Below, piece after piece: positions 3,145-50,921 of a stretch of DNA of 64,000 nt. The stretch lies in the IMG/VR virus record IMGVR_UViG_3300046170_000302; one strand, 5' to 3'. The position numbers and the translations under genes are program-made. This DNA comes from a virus. Its lineage: Duplodnaviria; Caudoviricetes. The notes below the pieces were generated by a model. That model was not told where the DNA came from and ran no database searches. It saw only the letters and a list, made by a program, of their open reading frames with translations. Every line of letters begins with the position of its first letter. The stretch's first letter is position 1.

Positions 3145-4572
3145 ATGGCACTTAATCCTTTCTTTTTAAACGGTACAAAGTCGGAACAAGGACTTGTACA
3201 AAGTCTTATCAACGAGCAGTTGAGGATGTATGGTATCGAGTGCTATTACTTGCCTCGTAAATATATAACAACTAATACAATAATTAAGGAAGTTATCGAA
3301 TCTAAATTCGATTCTGCCTATCCTTTAGAAGCATATCTGGATTCTTATGAAGGATTTGGTGGTCAGGGAACACTTTTATCTAGATTTGGTATTGAAGATA
3401 AGGATGATTGCACTTTAATTATCTCTAGAGAGAGGTATGAGAACTATATTTCCCCTTTAATTGAAAATTTACCCAATATTGGGTTATCTTCACGTCCAAA
3501 AGAAGGAGATTTGATCTATTTTCCTCTTGGAGACCGTATTTTTGAGATAAAATTCGTAGAACATGAGCAACCTTTCTATCAATTAAAGAAAAACTACGTC
3601 TATACACTTACTTGCGAACTATTCCGTTACGAAGATGAGGTTGTAGACACTGGAGTTAGTAAAATTGATGATAATTTGGTCGATTTTGGTTATATTCAGA
3701 CTCTAAACATGATTGGAGCAGCTGTTACAGCGACTGCAACTGCTGGAATTTGTACTTTGGGTGCTGTAAATCTCATTAGTATGTCAAATATGGGTAAAAA
3801 ATACTCATATAGACCAGAAATTGGAATATCTTCCTCACCAGGAACGACTACAGTTGGTATTGCATCTATCACAAATGAGTATATTCAGTGCGATGGTATG
3901 TATGGTGGTATGATTGAGGCTATTGATCTAGTAAATGCTGGTTGTGGATACACTGTCAAACCTATGGTGAGTATCACTCCATCTGGAAATGATAATGGCA
4001 ATAGCGCTACAGCAACTAGTGGTATATCGACCAATGGTTCTATTCAGTTTGTAACCATTACAGGTGGTGGTTCAGGTTATACTACAAGTCCAAACTTTAC
4101 TTTTGTTGTTGGTGGTGGAAATACTACTGGTGTTAGTACTGGATTTGGTTATGGTGTCATCAATAACGCTGGTGTTGTCACCGCAGGTTATATTAGATAT
4201 GGTGGTGAAAACTACAATCTTACAGGAGTTACAACTATCACTAGTGTAACTATTGACAATCCTGTTGGACTTGGAGCTACTGTTGGCGTTGGGACTTATA
4301 TCTTCAATGAAGTTGTTACTGGAGGAACATCAGGAACCACAGCTAGGGTTAACTCTTGGGACGGAACAAGTCTCGAACTTACTATCAAAGTTGTTGACGG
4401 AACATTCTCAGGAAATGAACTTGTTATCGGACAAGAGTCCGGTGCTTGTTATGCACTCAGATCACAGATTGTTGATGACTTAGTTACACCATTCGCAGAC
4501 AATGATAATATTCAAACAGAATCAAATAAGATACTTGATTTCACTGATAGTAATCCTTTTGGGGATCCTTAA
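3145..4572 (+). CDS. g14: Neck protein gp14 with C-terminal extension
   Basis: MALNPFF..EQGLVQSLINEQLRMYG; FEIKFVEHEQPFYQL motif; ATG at 3145 follows the g13 stop. Confidence 0.92.
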   Translation: MALNPFFLNGTKSEQGLVQSLINEQLRMYGIECYYLPRKYITTNTIIKEVIESKFDSAYPLEAYLDSYEGFGGQGTLLSRFGIEDKDDCTLIISRERYENYISPLIENLPNIGLSSRPKEGDLIYFPLGDRIFEIKFVEHEQPFYQLKKNYVYTLTCELFRYEDEVVDTGVSKIDDNLVDFGYIQTLNMIGAAVTATATAGICTLGAVNLISMSNMGKKYSYRPEIGISSSPGTTTVGIASITNEYIQCDGMYGGMIEAIDLVNAGCGYTVKPMVSITPSGNDNGNSATATSGISTNGSIQFVTITGGGSGYTTSPNFTFVVGGGNTTGVSTGFGYGVINNAGVVTAGYIRYGGENYNLTGVTTITSVTIDNPVGLGATVGVGTYIFNEVVTGGTSGTTARVNSWDGTSLELTIKVVDGTFSGNELVIGQESGACYALRSQIVDDLVTPFADNDNIQTESNKILDFTDSNPFGDP

Positions 4573-38207: not shown

Positions 38208-39151
38208 GTCGTAATGAATTCGTTTGGGTGGAGAAGTATCGCCCCCAGACTATTGATGATTGTATTCTTCCTGATAACATCAAGAAGACCTTTATTGATT
38301 TCCTAGATAAAGGTGAGGTTCCAAATCTTTTGTTATCGGGACCACCTGGATGTGGTAAAACCACTGTAGCTAAAGCACTTTGTAACCAATTAGGAGTAGA
38401 TGTTTATGTCATCAACGGATCCGATGAGGGGAGATTCCTCGATACTGTCAGAAACAATGCGAAGAATTTCGCTTCGACCGTATCGCTTTCGTCAACTGCT
38501 AAACACAAAGTCATCATCATTGACGAAGCAGATAACACAACCCCTGATGTACAACTTGCCTTACGGGCGTTTACTGAGGAGTTTATTGGCAACTGTCGAT
38601 TCATCTTCACCTGCAACTACAAAAACAAGATCGTTGCTCCCCTCCACTCCCGATGTGCAGTCATCGACTTTGCCATTAGGGGAAAAGAAAGACAGGAACT
38701 TGCAGGTAAGTTCTTCAAAAGACTCCAACAAATCTTGGATCAAGAATCTGTTGGATATGACGCAAAAGTCCTTGCAGAACTTATCAACAAACACTTTCCA
38801 GATTGGAGAAGAGTACTCAACGAAGTTCAAAGGTATTCGGTCGGGGGCAAAATCGACTCAGGAATCCTCGCAAGTTTTTCGGATGTAAAAACTAATGATC
38901 TCTTTAAAAAACTTAAGTCCAAAGACTTCTCGGCAGTTAGGAAGTGGGTTGTTGATAATCTTGATAACGATCCCACTGTATTGCTACGTTCTATATACGA
39001 TGCAATCTACGCCCATCTTGATGGTCCTGGTATCGCTGCCGCTGTACTTATTATTGCGAAGTATCAGTACCAAAGTGGCTTCGTTGCTGACCAAGAAATA
39101 AATATGTTGGCTTGTCTAACTGAAATCATGGTGGAGTGTGAATTCAAATGA
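38204..39151 (+). CDS. g44: Clamp loader large subunit gp44
   Basis: WVEKYRP, GPPGCGKTT, IIDEAD, LHSRC, FPDWRR. Confidence 0.96.
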   Translation: MSRNEFVWVEKYRPQTIDDCILPDNIKKTFIDFLDKGEVPNLLLSGPPGCGKTTVAKALCNQLGVDVYVINGSDEGRFLDTVRNNAKNFASTVSLSSTAKHKVIIIDEADNTTPDVQLALRAFTEEFIGNCRFIFTCNYKNKIVAPLHSRCAVIDFAIRGKERQELAGKFFKRLQQILDQESVGYDAKVLAELINKHFPDWRRVLNEVQRYSVGGKIDSGILASFSDVKTNDLFKKLKSKDFSAVRKWVVDNLDNDPTVLLRSIYDAIYAHLDGPGIAAAVLIIAKYQYQSGFVADQEINMLACLTEIMVECEFK

Positions 39152-39297
39152 GTAAACCCAGACAAAAGAAATCCAGAACTTATTATTACTTCTGGGGTTT
39201 GGCAACAATTGCAGTTGTGACCGGACAAATATATATCGGTAGTGGATATCATTCCATGGCTAATCAAGTCCGTGATTTGGTTGAGGTTGCTAAATGA
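39148..39297 (+). CDS. Small membrane hypothetical protein (probable extra C near 39160)
   Basis: After correction MSKPDKRNPELYYYFWGLATIAVVTGQIYIGSGYHSMANQVRDLVEVAK; ATGA overlaps at both ends. Confidence 0.5.
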   Translation: MSKPRQKKSRTYYYFWGLATIAVVTGQIYIGSGYHSMANQVRDLVEVAK

Positions 39298-39566
39298 AGA
39301 AACTATTAATAGCTTTAGGTGGAGTTCTTTTACTCTCCTCACCCGTAATGGCTCACAGTAAGGGATATCGTTATCATAGTCGTGGTAGTCATAGTCACTG
39401 CCATAATCACTACAAACGTGGATATAGTCATTGTCACTGGCATTCCCATAGACCAGGAAATGGTCACCATGGAAGACAATATATGCATGGTAGAAGACAT
39501 CATGGACATCATAGTCACCGTGATCACTATTATGATGGTGATGACGTTCAAATTATTATTCGTTGA
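39294..39566 (+). CDS. His-rich protein with signal peptide
   Basis: MKKLLIALGGVLLLSSPVMA then 19 His in 70 residues. Confidence 0.7.
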   Translation: MKKLLIALGGVLLLSSPVMAHSKGYRYHSRGSHSHCHNHYKRGYSHCHWHSHRPGNGHHGRQYMHGRRHHGHHSHRDHYYDGDDVQIIIR

Positions 39567-39569
39567 TTT

Positions 39570-39954
39570 ATGGAACTTAAAGATTGGTTGAATTCTCTTA
39601 ACTTTACCTAAAGAGAATCTTTTAGATGATGAACCCCATCTTGCAAAAGAGTATCCACCCTACATTATCAATCGTTGTATGTCTGGACACATGGATTCAG
39701 TCATGTATGCCCAAGAGATGAACAAGTATCACTTCCTTGATAAAGATTTGCAATATAATTTTTATCTAAATACTCTGAGAAAGAGGAAGAGATTCTCTCC
39801 TTGGATTCGGAAGGATAAAGTATCAGATCTTGATTATGTAAAACGTTACTATGGTTATAGTAATGAGAAAGCATCTCAGGTTATGAAGATTTTGACTCCT
39901 GAACAAATTACATACATTAAACAACGACTTGAAACTGGTGGGAGTAAAAAATGA
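39570..39954 (+). CDS. g62: Clamp loader small subunit gp62 (frameshift near 39610)
   Basis: MELKDWLNS..YPPYIINRC..LRKRKRFSPW..YYGYSNEKA. Confidence 0.92.
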
Positions 39955-40412
39955 GTCAAACTACTGAACCTCAGGTTCAATGGTCTCAAGATAAAATGAT
40001 TGAGGTCAGATTGAATGAACCTGATGATTTCCTGAAAGTCCGTGAAACCCTGACTAGAATTGGTGTTGCTTCTCGTAAAGAGAAGAAACTATATCAGTCC
40101 TGTCATATCCTTCATAAGCAAGGTAAGTATTATATCGTTCACTTCAAAGAACTATTTGCTCTTGATGGTAAGTACGCAAACCTTACTATCAATGATGTAC
40201 AACGTAGAAACCGTATCACCAAGCTCCTCTCTGACTGGGGATTGATTGATGTGTGTACAGAGGATGAGATCATTGACATCGCACCACTGAACCAGATTAA
40301 GGTTCTTCCATATAAGGAAAAGAGTGAGTGGGTACTAGAACAGAAGTACAATATCGGATCGAAAAAGAACCAGGGTAGTGAAACCCCACAATACAGAAGG
40401 TCGTTTGAGTAA
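39951..40412 (+). CDS. regA: Translational repressor RegA (unusual C-terminal tail)
   Basis: DDFLKVRETLTRIG, LYQSCHILHKQGKYYIVHFKELFALDG, KYNIG. Confidence 0.93.
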   Translation: MSQTTEPQVQWSQDKMIEVRLNEPDDFLKVRETLTRIGVASRKEKKLYQSCHILHKQGKYYIVHFKELFALDGKYANLTINDVQRRNRITKLLSDWGLIDVCTEDEIIDIAPLNQIKVLPYKEKSEWVLEQKYNIGSKKNQGSETPQYRRSFE

Positions 40413-40944
40413 GGCACAGAAACACCTTTCTACTCTTATCCCAGAACACTGTGTTGTTTTTGTTGCTAAACTAACTGAGCCAGGTGAAGTTTATGGTAAG
40501 AAGTATCCCAGAGGTCATCGTTGGAGAATTGATTCCAACACCCGTGCATTGAATTGGGCTCGAGCTGGGTCTGATGCTATTCCAAAAGATGTCTTTGTGA
40601 TTGAATATTCTTTTGAAGATCCTGATCGAATTCGTAAATCGTATAATACTTTTGACTCTCCTGATAGTGTAGAAAGAAACCAAGAAAAATTATATGGTAT
40701 CATTTCTGGGATGTACTGTTATACTCCACAGTCCTCAAAACTAATTAAGGGACAAATTATCTCTGGTCTCAATAAAGCATGTAATTTTTATTACCCAGAA
40801 ACTTGGAATCAGAATAATGTACCAGCAGCAGAACTTCCTGGACAGGTTGGTGCTTTCCTTGAAGAGCTTAAGACGTTGGATAGTCTAATGAAAAATAGTA
40901 CGGGGTTCAACACCCCCGTTTTTTATGCTATGTGTTATAATTAG
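40378..40944 (+). CDS. Hypothetical protein or gene fragment overlapping the regA end
   Basis: 188 aa ORF with GTG start; RWRIDSNTR resembles a ParB/Srx-like motif; reads through the terminator and promoter. Confidence 0.45.
   Translation: MKPHNTEGRLSKAQKHLSTLIPEHCVVFVAKLTEPGEVYGKKYPRGHRWRIDSNTRALNWARAGSDAIPKDVFVIEYSFEDPDRIRKSYNTFDSPDSVERNQEKLYGIISGMYCYTPQSSKLIKGQIISGLNKACNFYYPETWNQNNVPAAELPGQVGAFLEELKTLDSLMKNSTGFNTPVFYAMCYN
40901..40924 (+). terminator. Intrinsic terminator before hsp20
   Basis: CGGGG-TTCAACAC-CCCCG followed by a T run. Confidence 0.75.
40933..40941 (+). promoter_or_regulatory. Extended -10 promoter for hsp20
   Basis: TGTTATAAT, followed by a GAAA-loop hairpin and AAGGAG RBS. 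Confidence 0.6.
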
Positions 40945-41001
40945 TATGTGGTTGTCGAAAGAGACCACACATTTCAAACTCGCTTACTTAAGGAGTAACA
41001 C

Positions 41002-41445
41002 ATGACTACACTAGCACGCTACAACTCTGCAAACATCAACCAACTGATGGAACGTTTGCAACGAAACACGATCGGTATGGATGATTATTTTGATCGTGTA
41101 TTCAGCTACGAAGCACAAAGCTATCCCCCATATAACCTCGTTCAGGTTTCTGAGGATGAGTCCCGTCTAGAACTGGCTCTAGCAGGTTTCAGTCAGGATG
41201 AGGTAAAGGTCTACACTGAGAAGGGTTATCTGGTTATTGAGGGACAGAAGGAGAGCTCAGACGGACGGGAGTATATCCACCGCGGTCTGGCATCACGTTC
41301 CTTCACTCGTTCCTGGTCTATCTCAGAAGACACTGAAGTCTCTGATGTGAACTTCGAGAATGGTCTTCTGGTAGTAACACTGGCACGAGTGGTTCCTGAG
41401 AACCGTCGCCGTCGTTATCTTATGGGAGGTGGCGATACTAAATAA
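41002..41445 (+). CDS. hsp20: Small heat-shock protein Hsp20
   Basis: YPPYNL, ELALAGF, YIHRGLASRSFTRSW, FENGLL. Confidence 0.95.
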   Translation: MTTLARYNSANINQLMERLQRNTIGMDDYFDRVFSYEAQSYPPYNLVQVSEDESRLELALAGFSQDEVKVYTEKGYLVIEGQKESSDGREYIHRGLASRSFTRSWSISEDTEVSDVNFENGLLVVTLARVVPENRRRRYLMGGGDTK

Positions 41446-41461
41446 TCTATATCGTCGCCGC

Positions 41462-41505
41462 GGGAGGCACCTGGTCAGTAATCAGGTTGCCCTCCCCCTT
41501 TTTTT
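41462..41505 (+). terminator. Long hairpin plus T run after hsp20
   Basis: GGGAGGCACCTG..CAGGTTGCCCTCCC then T7. Confidence 0.75.
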
Positions 41506-41536
41506 GCACTATAATAATAGAGAGATATTATCTAAA

Positions 41537-41901
41537 ATGACTGTAAAAGTAGTATTACTCAAATCAGGTGAAGATATCATCGCTGATGTTGAGGAAATGA
41601 TTGTAGGTGAACCAGCAAGAGTGGTTGGATACTTCTTCAACTATCCTTGTTCTGTGAAAACTCCTAGGTAATGAAGCCTGTGAAAGAACAGAAGGAATCT
41701 CCTTTCAGACTTCGTATCACACCGTGGGCACCACTCTCTAAGGATCAGAAGGTTCCTGTGGTGTCAGATTGGGTCGTTAGTATTATGGAACCCATCGATG
41801 ATCTTCTAGATATGTACACAACAAGTATTAAAGACTATGAACAAAGACAATCTAAAACTACTAGTTCTACCGACGAATCAGATTCTACTGACTCAGATTG
41901 A
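41537..41901 (+). CDS. Conserved hypothetical protein (interrupted near 41660)
   Basis: MTVKVVLLKSGEDIIADV.. then ..PWAPLSKD..DWVVSIMEP. Confidence 0.65.
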
Positions 41902-42100
41902 GGAAGCTGGTGGTGATATCGGTGAACCTGATTGTAGATTGGTTGAACCCTTTGTGGTGAATGATGATGGGACTTTGGCTCCGTGGTTAGTTTCTCTTAC
42001 CAATCAGAACTCATTCATGATTCATTCTGATAAGATCTTGACTATCGTGGAACCCAATGGTACACTAGTAGATAAGTACAGCGACCTGGTGAAGGAATGA
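41837..42100 (+). CDS. Conserved hypothetical protein preceding g43
   Basis: GEPDCRLVEPF..LAPWL..FMIHSDKILTIVEP. Confidence 0.7.
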   Translation: MNKDNLKLLVLPTNQILLTQIEEAGGDIGEPDCRLVEPFVVNDDGTLAPWLVSLTNQNSFMIHSDKILTIVEPNGTLVDKYSDLVKE

Positions 42101-43560
42101 ACTTTTACGCCAATGTGATTATGGTTGGAAATGATTTCCTCGTTCGTGGTTATGAAAATGGCAAAAGAGTTCAATACAGGGAGAAGTTTCAACCCACCTT
42201 GTTTGTCAAATCAAACAGGGAGAGTGAGTGGAAGACATTGGAAGGTGAGAACGTAGAACCCATTCAACCTGGGTATGTCCGTGATTGTCGTGAGTTCTAC
42301 AAGAAGTATGATGGTGTAGATGGTTTCAAGATCTATGGGAAATGATCGATACATCTATCAATATATGTCTGAGAAGTTTCCACAAGATGAAATCAAGTGG
42401 GACATGTCTAAGATTAAACTTGTTACTATTGATATTGAGGTGAAGTCAGAAGATGGATTCCCCTCACCAGACTCTTGTTCGGAGGAGATGCTAACCATCT
42501 CTATTCAGGATTACAACACTAAGCAGATTCTTACTTGGGGACGTAAACCTTATACTCCATCACAAAAGAATGTCACATACTTCCACCACGAAGAAGAAGT
42601 GGATATGTTGAGAGCATTCATTAACTGGTGGAATGAAGATCCCCCAGAGGTTATTACTGGATGGAACTGTAGGTTGTATGATATTCCATATCTGTGTGGT
42701 CGTGTGGATAGGATAATGGGAACCAAAGAGATGAAGAGATTGTCTCCTTGGAATATCATTCAGCATGATGAGGTATACATCAATGGGAGACCACACAATG
42801 TATACAACATCGCAGGTGTAACTACACTTGACTTTATGGATCTCTACAAGAAGTTCACCTATGTGAACCGAGAATCATATCGATTAGACTTTATTGCAGA
42901 GACAGAACTGGGACAGAAGAAGTTGGACCACTCAGAGTTCAACACCTTTAAGGATTTCTATAATGGTGACTGGAAGAAGTTTGTAGACTATAACATCGTT
43001 GACGTGGAGCTGGTTGATAGGATGGAGGATAAACTTCGTCTGATTGAACTGGTGATTACTATGGCATTTGATGCTAAAGTGAAACTTCGTTGATCCTATG
43101 TTCCAGGTTAGATTGTGGGATACAATCATCTATAACTATCTAAAGAAGAGGAATATTGTAGTTCCTCAAATGGATAGAACAGACAAAGATTCAAAGTTTG
43201 CAGGTGCGTATGTTAAGGAACCGGTTCCGGGAGTCTATGATTGGGTTGTCAGTTTTGACCTTAACTCTCTCTACCCTCATCTTATCATGCAGTACAACAT
43301 CAGCCCCGAAACTCTCTTGGATGAGAAACATCCAACAGCCACAGTTAATCGAATTCTTGATGAGACGGTGAACTTTGAGATGTATAAGGACAATGCAGTT
43401 TGTGCCAATGGTGCAATGTATCGTAAGGATGTCAAAGGTTTCCTACCTGAGTTGATGGAGAAGATGTATGCTGAACGTAAGGCATTCAAAGGGTAAGATG
43501 TTGAAGAGTAAACAGAAACTAGTTGACATTGAAGCCGAGATGAAGAAGAGGGGATTGTGA
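42097..43560 (+). CDS. g43: DNA polymerase gp43, N-terminal subunit (43A): exonuclease, motif A and first fingers helix; three +1 errors
   Basis: DIEV (ExoI), GWNCRLYD (ExoII), YNIVD (ExoIII), SFDLNSLYP (motif A); corrected 486 aa ending KQKLVDIEAEMKKRGL-stop. Confidence 0.92.
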
Positions 43561-43823
43561 TAGAATTGCCAGAGATTATCAGAAAGAATTCATTTGCTTG
43601 TTTTGGTAGTTTGAATGCTACTGAGAGAGCAGTTATCTTAATGGGTGATGATGAGTATCGTAAATCACTAGACCTTGAGAATGATGATGCTCTCTGTTGG
43701 AAACTTCCAAGTAAGGAATCATCAACATTTGTTGGTTGGAATCCTCAATGTATTCCAACAATTGATTACATAGTATGGAAACTAGAACGCCTTGAAAAAA
43801 TTACTACAGGAGAAATTCACTGA
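43557..43823 (+). CDS. Hypothetical protein inside the g43 split
   Basis: 88 aa; GTGA overlap with the 43A stop and TGATG overlap with purM. Confidence 0.65.
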   Translation: MIELPEIIRKNSFACFGSLNATERAVILMGDDEYRKSLDLENDDALCWKLPSKESSTFVGWNPQCIPTIDYIVWKLERLEKITTGEIH

Positions 43824-44745
43824 TGGACTATAAAACTTCCGGTGTCGATATTGAAAAGGGTAAAGCATTTGTAGAACATCTCAAAATTATGGCACCTAAA
43901 ATTGGTGGGTTTAATGGAATGTATCCCCTTCCAAAAGGATATGAAAGACCGGTTCTGGTATCTGGTGCTGATGGTGTCGGAACTAAGATGAATATCTGTA
44001 GAATTGCCTTTGACTACACTACAATTGGAATTGATTTAGTTGCAATGTGTGTCAACGATGTAATCTGTAGTGGTGCTAAACCATTATATTTTTTAGACTA
44101 TATCTCTACTAAAAATATAAACTCCAGTGTCAATGAGATTGTATCTGGAATTGTCAAAGGATGTGAGATTGCTGGAATGGACCTTCTGGGTGGAGAGACT
44201 GCAGAACATTTCAGAGCAATCTGACTATGATCTTGCTGGTTTCTGTACTGGTATTGTAGGAGAAATATGAGATTGTTAATGGTAGTAGCATCCGAGCTGG
44301 TGATGTAGTCATCGGTATTGAGAGTAGTGGTCTTCATAGTAATGGATACACTCTTATCAATGATATGTTGTGGAGGAATAAAATCCTCTATAAGGATATG
44401 CCAGAGTTGTTAACACCAACCACAATCTACTCTCCTGTAATCCAAAAACTATTGGATGAAGTTCCTATTCTAGGTATGGCACATATCACAGGTGGTGGTA
44501 TCCCAGAGAACCTTCCTAGGTGTCTCCCCAAAGACAAAGGACTGAGTGTGAATGTTGATTACAATTCTTGGGAAAGACCAGAACTCTTTGATAAGATACA
44601 GAAAGCTGGTGACATCACTGAAGAGGAGATGAGGAACGTATTCAATCTTGGTATCGGGTTCTGTTTGATTGTCCCACCTGATGTGGTAGAATACACTCAA
44701 GCACTTATAGGTATGAAGTCCTGGGTCATCGGAGTAGTGGAATGA
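43823..44745 (+). CDS. purM: Phosphoribosyl-aminoimidazole (AIR) synthetase; two +1 errors near 44220 and 44265
   Basis: YKTSGVDI, DGVGTK, DLVAMCVND, GGETAE, SSGLHSNGY, HITGGG, FNLGIG. Confidence 0.95.
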
Positions 44746-45025
44746 AGTTCAAAGCATTAGTATTCATTCGTCTGAGATCACAGGTTGATGACTCACCAGG
44801 TAATGCTGTGAGAGACGCCTGTAAACGATTATCTGAGTTGGATATCAAGAAACTTAGACTTGGGTAAGGTGGTTGATGTTTGGTTGGAAGCAGAGAGCTA
44901 GAGAGTATGCTGAGAAGGAACTTGAAATGCTGTCGGATAGATTTCCTTGCTAATAAAGGTTATGGAAGACTGGGATTATGAACTTGACTGAGATTGAAAA
45001 CTTTCCTAAAGGTATTGAGGAATAA
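44742..45025 (+). CDS. purS: FGAM synthase subunit PurS (five extra bases must be removed to give 92 aa)
   Basis: MKFKALVFIRLRSQVDDSPGNAV..LRLGKVVD..RFLANKVMEDW matches the PurS pattern; absent from the ORF track. Confidence 0.75.
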
Positions 45026-46187
45026 TGGGATATCTAATCGGTGGTGCTGGTGAAGGTGTAGAAGAGGAGATCGTACAATCTGGTAAAGACTATTCTAAAC
45101 TGTCTGATCGAGAACTCCTAAGTCTCAGGGATCAGACAGTAAAAGATGTTGCTAAGTTCAACAACTTTCAGATGGTGAGAAAGATTTGTTTGAACTCAGC
45201 TTATGGTGCGGTTGGTAACCAATACTTCAGATACTTCAAACTTGCAAATGCAGAAGCTATCACTCTGTCAGGTCAAACATCTATCAGGTGGATTGAGGAT
45301 AGGTTGAATAAGTATTTGAATGAACTCCTAAAGACTGATAATGATTATGTTATTGCCGTTGATACTGATTCTGTATACCTTAACCTTGGTCCTCTTGTTG
45401 ATAAGTTCCTAGCAAAACAGAAGGATGATAAGGAGAAGGTGGTGAACCTTTTGGATAAGGTTTGTCAAGACAAGTTAGAACCTTTTATCGACGACTGTTA
45501 TGTGAAACTGGCTGACTATGTGAATGCATACGATCAGAAGATGCAGATGAAGACGTGAGAATATTGCTGATCGTGGTATCTGGACTGCCTAAGAAACGAT
45601 ACATCCTCAATGTGTGGGATAGTGAGGGTGTTCGTTATGAAGAACCCAAACTCAAGATCATGGGTATTGAGGCTGTCAAATCATCTACACCTGCTCCCTG
45701 TAGGAAGATGATTAAGGATGGTCTTCGAGTGATGATGGAAGGAACTGAAGATGAGATGATTAAGTTCATCGATCAAGCTAGACTTGAGTTCAACAAACTA
45801 TCAGTAGCTGAGTTGTCATTTCCCCGTTCTATTTCTGATGTAAATAAACATAAGAGCCACACAACCATCTATGGAAAGGGTTGTCCTATCCATGTGAGAG
45901 GTTCACTACTCCATAACCACTACATCAAAGAGAGAGGTTTGGATAACAAGTATTCTCTTATCAATAATGGTGATAAGATTAAGTTTGTTTATCTTAAGAA
46001 AGCCAATCCTATTCGTGAGAATGTGATTTCATTCTTGAATGATTTTCCGTATGAACTCGGACTTGATAAGTATATTGATTATGAGTTACAATTCAACAAA
46101 GCCTTCCTTGAACCTGTAAAGGTCATTCTTGATTCCATTGGATGGAATGTTGAGAAAGTTGCAAACCTAGAGTTATTTTTTAGTTAA
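45025..46187 (+). CDS. g43: DNA polymerase gp43, C-terminal subunit (43B): second fingers helix, palm and thumb; two +1 errors near 45550 and 45587
   Basis: RKICLNSAYG (motif B), VDTDSVY (motif C), KKRY, KIMGIE, C-terminal LELFFS clamp-binding-like tail; corrected 386 aa. Confidence 0.93.
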
Positions 46188-47197
46188 TGGATTTCCTTAA
46201 AGAGATTGTAAAAGAGATTGGAGATGAGTACACCCAACTGGCAGCCGACATCGACGAAACCGAAACTTACGTGGACACGGGTTCGTACATCTTTAACGGA
46301 CTTTGTTCAGGTAGTATATTTGGTGGCGTATCTGGGAATAAGATTACTGCCATTGCTGGGGAGTCTTCTACTGGAAAGACTTTCTTTAGCCTGGCAGTCG
46401 TCAAGAATTTCCTTGATTCTAACCCTGGTGGTTATTGTCTATATTTTGACACTGAAGCCGCTGTTAACAAGTCTCTTCTCACAAGTAGGGGGATTGACCT
46501 AGACCGTTTCGTTGTAGTCAATGTAGTTACTGTCGAACAGTTTAGACAGAAGGCACTACAAGCTGTTGATATCTACCTCAAAACACCAGAGGAAGATAGG
46601 AAACCTTGTATGTTTGTATTAGACTCTCTGGGTATGTTATCTACAGAGAAAGAGATTCGTGATGCTCTTGATGACAAACAGGTTCGGGACATGACCAAAT
46701 CACAGTTGGTCAAAGGAGCCTTTAGAATGTTAACCCTGAAGTTGGGACAGGCTAAAATCCCAATGATTGTTACTAACCACACCTACGATGTTATCGGATC
46801 TTATGTCCCGACTAAGGAAATGGGAGGCGGCAGTGGCCTCAAGTATGCCGCCTCTACGATCATTTATCTCACAAAGAAAAAGGAAAAGGATGGAACGGCT
46901 GTTATCGGAAACCTTATCAAAGCTAAAACAGCAAAGTCAAGACTTAGTAAAGAAAATAAAGACGTAACAGTTCGTCTCTACTATGATGAGAGAGGTTTGG
47001 ACAAATACTATGGTCTTCTAGAGTTAGGAGAAGCTGGTGGTATGTGGAAGAATGTGGCTGGTCGTTATGAGATGGATGGTAAAAAAATATATGCAAAAGA
47101 GATTCTTAAGAATCCAGATAAGTATTTTACACAGGAAGTTTTAGAACAGTTAGATGAAATCGCGAAAGAACAATTCTCCTATGGTTCAAGTATTTGA
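46187..47197 (+). CDS. uvsX: RecA-like recombinase UvsX
   Basis: GESSTGKT, FDTEAA, LDSLG, VTNHTY, MGGGSGLKY. Confidence 0.95.
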   Translation: MDFLKEIVKEIGDEYTQLAADIDETETYVDTGSYIFNGLCSGSIFGGVSGNKITAIAGESSTGKTFFSLAVVKNFLDSNPGGYCLYFDTEAAVNKSLLTSRGIDLDRFVVVNVVTVEQFRQKALQAVDIYLKTPEEDRKPCMFVLDSLGMLSTEKEIRDALDDKQVRDMTKSQLVKGAFRMLTLKLGQAKIPMIVTNHTYDVIGSYVPTKEMGGGSGLKYAASTIIYLTKKKEKDGTAVIGNLIKAKTAKSRLSKENKDVTVRLYYDERGLDKYYGLLELGEAGGMWKNVAGRYEMDGKKIYAKEILKNPDKYFTQEVLEQLDEIAKEQFSYGSSI

Positions 47198-47699
47198 CCA
47201 TGTTCTCCCTGAGGACTTGTGTCACAATCTCATAGATCTATTTGAAGATTCTGAGAAGAACCACGAATACTTTAATGATGATTACAAACCCTGTTTTACA
47301 CAACTGAACCTCAATCAACACAACCCAGAACTGGTAAAGGTTCTGGTTGGATTTGTTCAGAAAGCATACGGAATGTATTCAGTTGAGGTTAGAAGAAAAC
47401 ATCTACCAAGATTGAAATCTCTTGAGCAGTTTAGACTCAAGAGATATCTTCCTGGTGGAGAAGAACGATTTGATGAACATGTGGATGTGGGTGACCACGA
47501 ATCTGCAAGGAGATGTCTTGCCTTCTTATTTTATCTAAACGGTAGTGACGGAGAAACATACTTTCCTGAACATGACGTGACAATCCACCCAAAGTGTGGT
47601 AAAGTATTAGTGTTCCCTCCAACATGGGAATACCCACACGCTGGGTTGCCACCAACAAATACAAAGTATATTTTGAGTACATACATTCATTATGAATAA
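47181..47699 (+). CDS. 2OG-Fe(II) oxygenase
   Basis: HVD..FLFYLN..GETYF..FPPTWEYPHAG..KYILSTY. Confidence 0.85.
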   Translation: MVQVFDHVLPEDLCHNLIDLFEDSEKNHEYFNDDYKPCFTQLNLNQHNPELVKVLVGFVQKAYGMYSVEVRRKHLPRLKSLEQFRLKRYLPGGEERFDEHVDVGDHESARRCLAFLFYLNGSDGETYFPEHDVTIHPKCGKVLVFPPTWEYPHAGLPPTNTKYILSTYIHYE

Positions 47700-49065
47700 G
47701 GTTGAGTTTCTAATCCTAAGAAGTCTTCTTCACAATGAAGAATATTTGCGTAAGGCTTTACCATTCCTCAAAGATGAATACTTTGAGGACGAGGATCAGA
47801 AAGTTGTATACCAAGAGATTCTCAGTTTTACAACTGAGTATAATGAACTTCCTACAAAAGAGGTTCTTTCTATTGAGGTTGAGAAACGAAAGGATATCAA
47901 TGAGGATCAGTTCAAGAAAATTGCTCATCTGATTTCACATCTAGATGATGAACCAGCAGAGTTTGATTGGTTGTTAAACACTACTGAAAAGTGGTGTCGT
48001 GAACGTGCTATCTACTTGGCACTGGTTGAGTCTATTGGTATCGCAGATGGTCAGAGTAAAGATAAGACTCCAGATGCAATTCCTTCTATCTTATCTGATG
48101 CTCTAGCTGTTAGTTTTGATAATCATGTTGGACACGATTACCTAGAAGATTATCTAGAACGATATGAAGCCTATAACAGAAAGGAGAATAGGATACCATT
48201 TGATCTAGAATACTTTAACAAGATTACAAAGGGTGGTCTTCCTAACAAGACACTGAATATTGCTCTGGCTGGCACAGGTGTTGGTAAGTCTTTGTTTATG
48301 TGTCATATGGCTGCCTCTGTTCTTCTTCAGAACAAGAATGTTTTATACATTACTATGGAGATGGCTGAAGAGAAGATCGCAGAACGTATTGACGCTAACC
48401 TTTTGAATGTGAATATCCAAGAGGTGGCAGAACTTCCTAAACAGATGTTTGAAACCAAGGTAAATAACCTAGCAAAGAAGACTCAGGGAACCCTGATCAT
48501 CAAAGAATATCCCACAGCATCGGCACACAGTGGACACTTTACATCCCTTCTTAATGAGCTTGCACTTAAGAAGTCATTTAGACCTGATATTATTTTCATT
48601 GATTACCTTAATATTTGTGCTTCCAGCAGGTATCGCGGAGGCAGCAATGTCAATTCATATACGGTTATTAAGTCTATTGCTGAAGAGCTTAGAGGACTCG
48701 CTGTCGAAGCGAACGTACCTATCGTATCTGCCACCCAGACCACTCGTTCTGGTTATGGTAGCAGTGACGTTGAGCTTACTGATACTAGTGAGTCCTTTGG
48801 TCTCCCTGCTACTGCTGATCTTATGTTTGCCCTTATTTCAACTGAAGAACTCGAATCCTTGGGACAGATACTGGTGAAGCAGTTGAAGAACAGATACAAT
48901 GACGCTAATGTGTATAAGAGATTTGTGATTGGTATTGACAGAGCCAAGATGAGGTTGTATGATTGTGAGCAGTCAGCTCAGGACGATCTCCTTGAAAGTA
49001 AAACCGAAGAGGAGTATAATTATGAGGACAAACCTAAGAAATCATTTGAGGGATTTAAGTTTTGA
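47692..49065 (+). CDS. g41: Replicative helicase gp41
   Basis: AGTGVGKS, ITMEM, FIDYL, SATQTTR, SESFGLPATAD, QLKNRY. Confidence 0.96.
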   Translation: MNKVEFLILRSLLHNEEYLRKALPFLKDEYFEDEDQKVVYQEILSFTTEYNELPTKEVLSIEVEKRKDINEDQFKKIAHLISHLDDEPAEFDWLLNTTEKWCRERAIYLALVESIGIADGQSKDKTPDAIPSILSDALAVSFDNHVGHDYLEDYLERYEAYNRKENRIPFDLEYFNKITKGGLPNKTLNIALAGTGVGKSLFMCHMAASVLLQNKNVLYITMEMAEEKIAERIDANLLNVNIQEVAELPKQMFETKVNNLAKKTQGTLIIKEYPTASAHSGHFTSLLNELALKKSFRPDIIFIDYLNICASSRYRGGSNVNSYTVIKSIAEELRGLAVEANVPIVSATQTTRSGYGSSDVELTDTSESFGLPATADLMFALISTEELESLGQILVKQLKNRYNDANVYKRFVIGIDRAKMRLYDCEQSAQDDLLESKTEEEYNYEDKPKKSFEGFKF

Positions 49066-49418
49066 ACGGTTACTATTCAGTGTTTAATCCCAGAGGTGAA
49101 AAGATTGCCGATTGTGGTAGTCAAAGAGATGCCGTTAATCTTATTGGTATGAGGAATGCACGATGGGACGGACATTACTATATGTTCAATCCCCTCCCTG
49201 GTGATATAATTGATGTTAGTTCTGACAAACAACTTCCTACCCGAGACATCGTAGTTAATATGGATGGTGGAGTAGGTGGTTCTTGGAAAGAAGTTTCCGA
49301 GGAAGAATATGTTCACATCAATGACGATCCTCATGATGGATGGTGGTTGAGACCCGAACATCAAGACTGGAATCTCCCTGAACTCCCTGAAAATCAACAA
49401 CAACCTTTAGACTTATGA
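49062..49418 (+). CDS. Hypothetical protein
   Basis: 118 aa coupled ORF. Confidence 0.6.
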   Translation: MNGYYSVFNPRGEKIADCGSQRDAVNLIGMRNARWDGHYYMFNPLPGDIIDVSSDKQLPTRDIVVNMDGGVGGSWKEVSEEEYVHINDDPHDGWWLRPEHQDWNLPELPENQQQPLDL

Positions 49419-49819
49419 CTGTAGACACACAACGATACCTTGAATTTGTAGATGGCGTTACCTCGGAACAAAGTAAAGATTACGAAGCTTTTGTATATCG
49501 TATCCAAGAACTTGAAGGACAGGAATTTCCTACCGAGCGATTGCTTACTGCTGCTGTAGGTATGTCAGCAGAGGCAGGTGAGTTTACTGAGATTGTCAAG
49601 AAGATTGTATTCCAAGGTAAACCTGTCAATGAAGAGAACTTGTTTCATATGAAACGAGAACTTGGTGATATTATGTGGTATGTGGCTCAAGCCTGTATGG
49701 GGTTAAATACCTCGATCGATGAGATCATTGAGATGAATGTAGAGAAACTTGAGAAACGATACCCTGGTGGATCGTTTGATGTTCACTACTCTGAAAACCG
49801 TAAACAAGGAGACCTCTGA
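49415..49819 (+). CDS. mazG: MazG-like nucleotide pyrophosphohydrolase
   Basis: EAGEFTEIVKK..ELGDIMWY..NVEKLEKRYP. Confidence 0.92.
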   Translation: MTVDTQRYLEFVDGVTSEQSKDYEAFVYRIQELEGQEFPTERLLTAAVGMSAEAGEFTEIVKKIVFQGKPVNEENLFHMKRELGDIMWYVAQACMGLNTSIDEIIEMNVEKLEKRYPGGSFDVHYSENRKQGDL

Positions 49820-49938
49820 TGGATGGTGCAGTTCATGCATGGAATACCATGAGTTATGGAGAAGGATTTCTCTTCTCCGTTTGGTTACTGGGAATGTATT
49901 TTATTAAACTAAAAATGGATCAGAGGTTTGGGCGATGA
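49819..49938 (+). CDS. 39-aa putative membrane peptide
   Basis: MDGAVHAWNTMSYGEGFLFSVWLLGMYFIKLKMDQRFGR; overlapping start/stop at both ends. Confidence 0.55.
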   Translation: MDGAVHAWNTMSYGEGFLFSVWLLGMYFIKLKMDQRFGR

Positions 49939-50096
49939 ATCTTGAAATGAGTAGACGTGATGCAATTGTTCTACGTCATCATCTTTTCTTGTATACAAAA
50001 GACCATCCTGGTTTCTTCTCTGATGAAGGTATTCTAAAGATCAGAGAGATTTCACAACAACTAGATAAACAAATTGGTAAGGAGGAAAACCTATGA
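49935..50096 (+). CDS. 53-aa hypothetical protein
   Basis: ATGA overlaps at both ends; MNLEMSRRDAIVLRHHLFLY.. Confidence 0.55.
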   Translation: MNLEMSRRDAIVLRHHLFLYTKDHPGFFSDEGILKIREISQQLDKQIGKEENL

Positions 50097-50311
50097 TTAA
50101 AATTGAAATGGATGTTAGAGCTGCAGCCGCAGTGAGAGCATCACTTTTTCGTGATACAAAAGATTATACATATGATCCAACCTGTTGTCCTCAACGAGTT
50201 GTTGATCTTCGTAACGTAATTTTAGATTTGGACACACAAATCGAAACAGAGATCCAAAAAGTAATTGAAGCACAAACTGAGGAGGAATCAAATGAAACTA
50301 CTGACGCTTGA
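50093..50311 (+). CDS. Hypothetical protein
   Basis: 72 aa with AAGGAG RBS. Confidence 0.6.
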   Translation: MIKIEMDVRAAAAVRASLFRDTKDYTYDPTCCPQRVVDLRNVILDLDTQIETEIQKVIEAQTEEESNETTDA

Positions 50312-50513
50312 AGATTATCAAAAGGCTGGAGAAGAGTTTTGGCCTAAGTATTGGTATGTCTCTAAAGAACTTGGAGAGGGAGCTAAGGTTGAGGACATTC
50401 TAAAAGTTATGGAATCTCTTGGTGCTGTTGCTTTAAAAATTAAAGTAGAAGACAAACTCTCTGGACCATTTGGATTTAACAAAAAGAAAGATGACGAATC
50501 AACGGAAGAATGA
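50292..50513 (+). CDS. Hypothetical protein
   Basis: GGAGG RBS; MKLLTLEDYQKAGEEFWPKY.. Confidence 0.65.
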   Translation: MKLLTLEDYQKAGEEFWPKYWYVSKELGEGAKVEDILKVMESLGAVALKIKVEDKLSGPFGFNKKKDDESTEE

Positions 50514-50721
50514 AACCCTGGTTGATGAAGCGTTCTATGTCTGGGAAACTAGATATGGACTGTGGTCAACAGAAACAAAAGAAGGTCGTGGTATGATGAC
50601 TGGAGCTACTAGAGATGCTGTTGTTGTAATGACACGGTGGCATCTCAAGTGTGAACAAGATGGAACTCTTGAACAATACACAAGAGTTGTAGGTAGTTCT
50701 GTGGTTGATGGGAAGTTGTAA
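50491..50721 (+). CDS. Hypothetical protein
   Basis: ..FYVWETRYGLWST..TRWHLKCEQDG..SVVDGKL. Confidence 0.6.
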   Translation: MTNQRKNETLVDEAFYVWETRYGLWSTETKEGRGMMTGATRDAVVVMTRWHLKCEQDGTLEQYTRVVGSSVVDGKL

Positions 50722-50921
50722 TGGACCAAATATTCAGACTGTTGTCTATGTTTGTTATGTTGTTCAATATCTGTAATCAGAGTGACTTCAATAGACAACA
50801 GTGTATGAAAGACTGGGATGTGTGGTTGTATCCTGAACTTATAAGTGGTTGGAATCTATACACAGAAAAAGAAAAACCCTATCAAAGAGAGAAGGAAATA
50901 TTAGAAGACATAAATAACTAA
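50721..50921 (+). CDS. Hypothetical protein with hydrophobic N-terminus
   Basis: 66 aa, TAATG-coupled. Confidence 0.55.
   Translation: MDQIFRLLSMFVMLFNICNQSDFNRQQCMKDWDVWLYPELISGWNLYTEKEKPYQREKEILEDINN

Follow-up and report, generated by a model that had tools for sequence, protein, structure and literature searches.

Organization of gene 43 in the window

The window analysed here is the whole 64,000-nucleotide stretch of IMG/VR record IMGVR_UViG_3300046170_000302 (Duplodnaviria; Caudoviricetes). It carries gene 43, encoding the T4-type B-family DNA polymerase gp43, as two separate genes, 43A and 43B, with three other genes between them. Mapping by tblastn with a contiguous one-piece cyanophage gp43 (S-SCSM2R, 832 amino acids, aa) placed reference residues 1-465 at 42097-43490 and residues 468-832 at 45070-46184. 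43A extends 23 codons past the first block to a stop at 43560 (...ERKAFKGKMLKSKQKLVDIEAEMKKRGL), and 43B has 15 extra codons ahead of the second block, beginning with an ATG at 45025 (MGYLIGGAGEGVEEE...), with a Shine-Dalgarno sequence, GAGGAA, 4 nucleotides (nt) upstream. The features of the locus are:

42097..43560, + strand: gene 43A, encoding the N-terminal domain, 3'-5' exonuclease, palm motif A and first finger helix
43540..43560, + strand: codons of the 43A tail (KKRGL), with a purine-rich, Shine-Dalgarno-like AAGAGGGG just ahead of the next start codon
43557..43823, + strand: ORF88, cargo gene 1, an open reading frame (ORF) of 88 aa, PHROG 1132 (phrog_1132, E 1e-46), putative product without assigned function
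43823..44745, + strand: purM, aminoimidazole ribonucleotide (AIR) synthetase, cargo gene 2 (Pfam AIRS, E 3e-19; AIRS_C, E 8e-16)
44742..45025, + strand: purS-like gene, cargo gene 3 (Pfam PurS on its first piece, E 9e-4)
45025..46187, + strand: gene 43B, encoding the second finger helix with motif B (KICLNSAYG), palm motif C (DTDS) and thumb (Pfam DNA_pol_B)

Several of these frames are interrupted in the record by single extra bases. 43A is 486 aa long once those at 42337, 43082 and 43491 are taken out, and ends in ...KQKLVDIEAEMKKRGL with a TGA stop at 43558-43560; the orthologous 487-aa 43A is matched by Pfam DNA_pol_B_exo1 and DNA_pol_B. Two extra bases (about 44216-44220 and 44258) were removed from purM to give 306 aa, five from purS to give 92 aa, and two (about 45552 and 45590) from 43B to give 386 aa. 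Loci numbered with the prefix L come from an IMG/VR scan that used the 43B head as query and gave 80 loci; purM is intact in L003, L004 and L010, and the intact purS orthologue of L003 matches Pfam PurS with E 2.5e-17. A Pfam search with ORF88 gave no match. The 43B protein starts with a conserved MGYLIGG (MGYLIGGAGEG...), followed by an acidic linker and then the second finger helix.

The five genes, in the order 43A-ORF88-purM-purS-43B, are chained by stop/start overlaps of 1 or 4 nt. The GTG start of ORF88 overlaps the 43A stop (GTGA), the purM ATG has one base in common with the ORF88 stop (TGATG), that of purS overlaps the purM stop (ATGA), and the purS TAA ends on the base with which the 43B ATG begins (TAATG). 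Promoter and terminator motifs showed no excess over chance across 39104-50910, and the late-promoter core was not found there either. A preliminary description of this DNA had proposed a polymerase in two genes of 486 and 386 codons, separated by three complete, overlap-coupled genes. The tblastn blocks, together with contigs bridging the junctions (see below), bear this out, with the halves about 1.46 kb apart, and the gene sizes and overlaps hold once the record's errors are removed.

Position of the break

Orthologous 43A aligned to RB69 gp43 up to about residue 494, and orthologous 43B aligned from about residue 554 of RB69 (512 of T4), motif B lying at 560-567. We take the RB69 fingers to span residues ~469-572, so the cut is at their far end. 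In the window 43A ends 26 residues after the conserved QRK/ERK, and 43B starts 61 residues before motif B. The one-piece S-SCSM2R sequence across this region, ERVIFKKKMIEAKKAYEKTPTKALEREISRCDNIQMAKKIALNSAYG, reads as two helices with a short turn between them and motif B at the end; by this alignment, therefore, the break is at the turn at the tip of the fingers, and both finger helices read as longer than in the reference. The earlier placement of the break at the fingers tip thus agrees with the RB69 and T4 alignments and with the distances to the two motifs.

Predicted complex of 43A and 43B

Complex prediction was carried out with the intact orthologues of the purM-bearing locus L010 (43A, 486 aa; 43B, 388 aa). 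The pair scored 0.82 in three runs, compared with 0.10 for the best control. In calibration, 51 of 78 solved complexes reached that mark, as did 2 of 108 mismatched pairs. About 400 contacts were predicted, among them those of 43A residues 443-486 and 43B residues 20-64, which follow the helical periodicity of paired finger helices, and the model packs the two extended helices along their whole length. Modelling of the complex had been suggested as a check on a heterodimer joined through extended finger helices, and the predicted pairing is consistent with that proposal.

The split allele across cyanophages

About 30 of the 80 IMG/VR loci share the 43A tail (KQKLVDIE.E.K.RG..) and the 43B head ([MVL]GYLIGG...). 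In 17 of these the halves are directly adjacent, and a single base both ends the 43A stop and begins the 43B start (TAATG). This cargo-free arrangement, with one nucleotide in common, was the commonest state among the loci sampled. Inserts of differing cargo sit exactly at the same 43A/43B junction point in others:

L010: purM alone
L003, L004: ORF88-purM-purS and small ORFs
L012: thioredoxin-like gene and small ORFs
L011, L016, L025: small ORFs only
L007: 95 nt without an ORF
L022, L027, L028: HNH-type endonuclease gene of 151-153 aa (phrog_374, E 1e-57 to 1e-60)

The split also occurs in the cultured Synechococcus phage ACG-2014f (45 records), with two small ORFs at the junction and two coding sequences annotated "gp43 DNA polymerase". 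In its annotation (L083, NC_026927.1, 3620-4187) 43B starts at an internal Met, at locus position 4187; the homologous frame begins near 4001 (..IGYLIGG..), with a start codon that is non-ATG or ambiguous, so that the annotation misses the second finger helix and motif B.

One 388-aa 43B protein was present on at least 24 contigs (ENA, JGI, Tara), and its neighbour in each of the 10 places shown was a 487-aa 43A, the two overlapping by one base. Among 5.8 billion proteins searched, 7363 counted as relatives at E ≤ 1e-20 and a permitted length; the 120 of these that were listed were all 386-392 aa long, with full coverage. The split is a widespread cyanophage allele, mostly cargo-free among the loci sampled, and not a peculiarity of this genome. 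The preliminary description had called for a survey of cyanophage gene 43 loci and had viewed the junction as a tolerated landing site for cargo; the split recurs, with cargo varied or absent, and different genes lie at an identical point. It was silent on the split being widespread, scattered on trees and of a kind published since 2004-2006.

A homolog of ORF88 is found just upstream of purM in S-RIM44, L003 and L004. In S-RIM44 the ORF88-purM pair lies beside purC, in a different region of the genome, and by this comparison the cassette has moved.

Two families of small ORFs recur at the junction across lineages (L003:5248-5564, L004:4334-4498, L011:5867-5998, L025:2061-2222, L083:3620-3778). 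One encodes 52-62 aa with KYGGLVRYDH (phrog_3538); the other, immediately upstream of 43B, encodes a lipoprotein-like peptide of 43-54 aa (..LLL.GCS...C..YY..R.G..YA.EVC).

Other breaks in gene 43 were encountered. Two loci have a finger-tip split with other junction peptides: L080 (5266-6049), with a 234-aa GIY-YIG-like gene between 43A (...EQIESEMRWRGII) and 43B, and L063 (3855-4617), with a 224-aa ORF between ...GELKRRKVDLNTP and MEIDYSKISTEELKK.... A second, different split lies just after motif A (...SISPETLV...ELE(K)ML stop, then start MK..WKDVRKM...) in L036:1751-2507, L070:5041-5794, L072:5478-5788, L038:5071-5312 and L040; its gap holds an HNH endonuclease gene of 188-194 aa in L036 and L070, a 71-aa remnant in L072 and none in L038 or L040. 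In S-B05 (MK799832.1) the first 216 residues of the polymerase are encoded at 196093-196740 on the minus strand and the other 620 at 100596-102452 on the plus strand. These pieces, ~94 kb apart on opposite strands, reflect either an inversion cutting the exonuclease domain or an assembly error; the same is seen in RB11-B.

Selection and conservation at the junction

The ratio of nonsynonymous to synonymous substitution rates (dN/dS) was 0.047-0.067 for 43A and 0.048-0.098 for 43B, comparisons of cargo-bearing with cargo-free loci included, and 0.12-0.17 for purM. These values indicate that both polymerase halves are functional genes under strong purifying selection. The GYLIGG head of 43B is the same in all 19 loci compared, although the codons that spell it differ freely between them (for example GGT/GGA, TAT/TAC, TTA/TTG/CTA/CTT), so selection acts on the protein; the L025 lineage lacks this head.

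In the 19-locus junction alignment, the last 43A codons (K-K/R-R-G) spell AGAGG, GGAGG or GAGGGG 8-12 nt upstream of the 43B start. In cargo-free relatives the same tail codons directly precede the 43B ATG. We infer from this arrangement that the Shine-Dalgarno-like run in the 43A tail serves coupled translation of the two halves.

Distribution of the split state and a possible role of homing

Three finger alleles of gp43 were distinguished in cyanophages: a short one-piece form (59 residues from GxxP to NSxYG), a medium one-piece form (73 residues), which has KQKLVDIE and QT.KDIAKFNNFQ in common with the split form, and the split form itself. The 43B-body tree mixes split with one-piece forms, and short one-piece polymerases occupy its branches closest to the Aeromonas outgroup. 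On the 43A-body tree the split state requires eight changes, at least five of them forced by well-supported branches. The approximately unbiased (AU) test rejected a single split clade (ΔlnL 489, p 2e-6), the tested group having been named after the tree was seen.

This scatter suggests that the split allele spread by recombination or homing. Movement by recombination is most likely, because peptides as specific as those at the junction would not have arisen more than once; homing is a candidate mechanism, given the endonuclease genes at some junctions. A stronger form of the second idea treats the allele as a selfish cassette, not vertically inherited, which free-standing homing endonucleases carried from phage to phage; most genomes would later have lost the endonuclease, leaving an open slot. 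We consider this possible, without favouring it. The HNH-type genes between the halves in L022, L027 and L028 and the GIY-YIG-like gene of L080 are what such a cassette would leave, and Aeromonas phage 25 carries a GIY-YIG gene at the same site; the eight changes on the 43A tree, the rejection of monophyly and an equal scatter on the 43B tree would follow from it as well. However, most split loci contain no endonuclease gene and none was found between the halves in the window, where the cargo is phrog_1132, purM and purS. Ordinary homologous recombination between co-infecting cyanophages would scatter the allele too, the AU-tested group was chosen with the tree in view, and both the cleavage site and the homing activity are putative.

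A fuller scenario starts from a mobile allele, spread by endonucleases among co-infecting cyanophages, whose junction became a protected expression slot on loss of the endonuclease and was repeatedly loaded with host-derived metabolic genes (here purM, purS), with GYLIGG acting as a latch or partner-binding peptide. We regard this as speculative and rather unlikely. Were it true, nucleotide-precursor supply would be translated in fixed coupling with the polymerase, and the latch would have been made possible by the free N-terminus of 43B.

Absence of splicing signals

We considered whether RNA splicing, protein trans-splicing or ribosomal recoding restores a single chain from the two halves. 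Each has some precedent or opportunity: 43B of Aeromonas phage 25 carries a group I intron, split inteins fracture other cyanophage replication genes (PMC2677866), and in cargo-free relatives the 43A and 43B frames overlap by one base. An Rfam scan of 41500-46500 in the window, however, found no intron. No intein halves were found at the broken ends: 43A is finger helix up to its stop, the head of 43B has only ~25 unmatched residues, which contain no intein blocks and no C-intein end, and there is no HN+Cys/Ser/Thr end. The homology to polymerases stops only a few residues short of either terminus, leaving no room for an N-intein, in agreement with the earlier statement that intein N and C motifs are missing. 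Rejoining would further need to skip 1.46 kb with three selected genes in the window, and 43B has a conserved start codon and Shine-Dalgarno site. Rejoining of the halves is thus very unlikely.

Two weak signals were met in these searches. The Rfam scan gave a sub-threshold match to Ocean-VII RNA at 45119-45147, inside 43B (20.8 bits against a gathering threshold of 53.5, E 0.009), which is probably due to chance. ORF88 was tried as an intein because of a loose likeness to block A (CFGSLN...), and this candidate was dropped, since ORF88 has no Pfam match and no TxxH block and belongs to a PHROG that normally accompanies purM elsewhere.

Errors of the record and support from independent assemblies

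Compared with the 90%-identical contig L003, the window contains 12 single-base insertions, all +1, at 42337, 43082, 43491, 44220, 44259, 44860, 44897, 44942, 44958, 44984, 45554 and 45590. They are not confined to homopolymers. Three further single-base insertions lie upstream, at 41656, 41678 and 41688. Contigs of four independent public runs, three from DNA and the fourth an RNA library, were also compared. Eleven of the 12 insertions were tabulated as one letter omitted in these contigs (at 42337, 43082, 43491, 44216, 44258, 44859, 44897/44899, 44946, 44958, 44983 and 45552), 8 sites in all four runs and 3 in the three DNA runs only. The twelfth, near 45590, falls outside the tabulated part of the run comparison and is absent from L003.

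The 43A/ORF88 junction was crossed by contigs in all four runs (43253-43698, 43293-43950, 43492-44055, 43293-43702), and the purS/43B junction in three of the four (44969-45530, 44900-45108, 44984-45365). Those at the first junction are near identical to the window. All or part of the stretch was present in 20 runs from 16 studies. The frameshifts in the window are thus single-base insertion errors of this record, and the split layout is neither a misassembly nor a frameshift artefact, because independent contigs bridge the junctions and omit the extra bases. The preliminary description had likewise kept the split apart from homopolymer errors, and had named reads failing to span the junctions as a sign of misassembly; the independent contigs omit the extra bases yet keep both gene ends, and they bridge the first junction in four runs and the second in three.

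A chimeric contig that placed a purM cassette into an ordinary one-piece polymerase gene is a negligible possibility. The record is error-prone, with its 12 insertions in 4 kb, and purM is placed elsewhere in other cyanophages, as beside purC in S-RIM44; however, the independent contigs span the first junction in four runs and the second in three, purM likewise lies between 43A and 43B in three other metagenomes (L003, L004 and L010), both sides have proper termini (a stop after a conserved tail; a Shine-Dalgarno sequence and ATG before a conserved head), and the same tail and head are common to cargo-free relatives. Equally improbable is a decaying, non-functional pseudogene in a defective genome, to which the five frameshifts inside 43A and 43B might point, since four of these were tabulated as absent from independent contigs (three in four runs, that at 45552 in the three DNA runs), the fifth is the one near 45590 already discussed, the orthologues are intact at dN/dS 0.05-0.10, and motifs A, B and C are all present.

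The GGGG run before the 43A stop was also considered as an under-call that would hide a fusion of 43A to ORF88. This was rejected: all errors seen are over-calls, and the stop is kept in L003, L004 and the independent contigs.

The insertions break DUF6561-like ORFs, 43A, purM, purS and 43B, and uvsX and gp41, just downstream, are intact. The uvsX ATG has one base in common with the 43B stop, at 46187, and a 2-oxoglutarate-Fe(II) (2OG-Fe(II)) oxygenase gene (47154-47699) overlaps the uvsX end by 44 nt, ahead of gp41. The order 43B-uvsX-2OG-Fe(II) oxygenase-gp41 is the same in related loci.

A probable two-chain replicative polymerase

Very probably, then, this marine cyanophage makes its replicative polymerase as two polypeptides, whose assembly, activity and coupled translation we infer. 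43A (~56 kDa) carries the N-terminal domain, exonuclease, palm motif A and the finger helix that runs outward; the helix that runs back, with motif B, is part of 43B (~44 kDa), together with palm motif C, the thumb and the C-terminal tail. The break sits in the fingertip loop, far from the active site, so the halves should interlock over the same large surface as in the one-chain enzyme, the two lengthened finger helices forming an antiparallel pair. The one-base stop/start overlap and the Shine-Dalgarno-like run in the last 43A codons would couple translation of the halves. In the window, a purine-synthesis cassette (ORF88, purM, purS) appears to have been inserted exactly into this one-base junction, with overlaps kept throughout; as it carries no promoter or terminator of its own, the cargo would be expressed within the replication-gene transcript.

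Several points weigh against this interpretation. Residues 1-19 of 43B, including GYLIGG, were not placed with confidence in the model. The score of the pair may reflect memory of one-chain B-family structures, and so likeness instead of binding. Low-level frameshifting may fuse the halves in cargo-free relatives. The RNA support consists of contigs from RNA libraries that could contain DNA. For cyanophages the two-chain enzyme is deduced from genes and the model, and the biochemistry comes from phage 25 only.

Comparison with known split polymerases

Bicistronic gp43 (43A/43B) has been described in Aeromonas phages 25, 31 and 44RR2.8t (Petrov & Karam 2004; Petrov et al. 2006, J Mol Biol 361:46; PMC2988022), and a review reports that the two phage 25 proteins, gp43A and gp43B, purify together and are active (PMC2988022). 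As in the window, the polymerase is of the T4-type B family, comes from two genes and is cut at the fingers tip, with foreign genes between the halves. In phage 25, 43A continues for 30 residues beyond QRK and closes in a basic tail (...ILASRGIKTDH; ...KKMMLAAIRNQEAIKKILASRGIKTDH), and its 43B starts ~55 residues before motif B (MELELFRDFNDAELEYLNTLSNDELQK...NRKILINSLYG, with MELELFRDF...LSNDELQK ahead of the motif). Phage 25 differs in having an untranslated spacer, a GIY-YIG endonuclease gene and a group I intron in 43B, whereas the window has no spacer, intron or endonuclease, its genes are overlap-coupled and its cargo is metabolic. The polymerase of Acinetobacter phage 133 is broken at the same structural site (Petrov et al. 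2006): its 43A ends ...KSILARRKK (...KKMITAEQNAEVIKSILARRKK), 26 residues after QRK, and its 43B starts MELNYGIKFNEDEIAYLETCTDEELKR..., about 2.9 kb downstream of 43A. In contrast, the cyanophage insert carries purine-synthesis genes, with no promoters detected, and the cargo-free adjacent form, commonest in the sampled cyanophage loci, is not seen in phage 25 or 133.

All three lineages are cut 26-30 residues after (E/Q)RK and 55-61 residues before the YG of motif B, and the precedent in Aeromonas and Acinetobacter phages cited in the preliminary description is correct. From the trees and junction sequences, the cyanophage split arose separately from the Aeromonas/Acinetobacter event, because the earliest-branching cyanophage polymerases (with phage 25 on the opposite side of the midpoint root) are one-piece and the junction peptides are unrelated; the resulting enzyme would work like those of that family.

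Endonuclease-fractured genes without inteins, among them nrdA of phage Aeh1, split by mobE, and the fractured genes of Dassa et al. (2009, PMC2677866), are alike in that an essential enzyme of replication or nucleotide metabolism is made as two translated halves needing reassembly, and relatives of the window (L022, L027, L028, L080) carry free-standing endonuclease genes in the gap. They differ in that the window has no such gene, and no split-intein halves were found anywhere in the cyanophage split family. Split PolB is also known from archaea, in Methanothermobacter and, with a split intein, in Nanoarchaeum (PMC2677866). These too are B-family polymerases made from two genes, but in another lineage, and the Nanoarchaeum enzyme is rejoined by protein trans-splicing. 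The archaeal break points probably differ from the fingers-tip site.

Significance

Publications on two-chain gp43 of this kind, from Aeromonas and Acinetobacter phages, date from 2004-2006 onwards. Neither the cyanophage lineage nor the purine-gene cargo appears to have been described. We found no paper on split gp43 in cyanophages, which is weak evidence, subscription journals not having been covered; the literature matches for "split DNA polymerase" deal with family A enzymes of the T7-like type or with Pol III.

Marine cyanomyoviruses have gene 43 in their core set, and it serves as a standard marker for them. Gene calling, annotation and marker-gene surveys can all be led astray by the variable insert, as with 43B of ACG-2014f. 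The same phage offers a cultured natural system for the assembly of a split B-family polymerase. As this would be a third independent break at the fingers tip, the site can be argued to be structurally permissive. The findings add an abundant marine group to the few Aeromonas and Acinetobacter phages with two-chain gp43. Two-chain replicases are apparently made by a large share of ocean cyanophages, and in some of these the polymerase locus also houses genes for purine biosynthesis.

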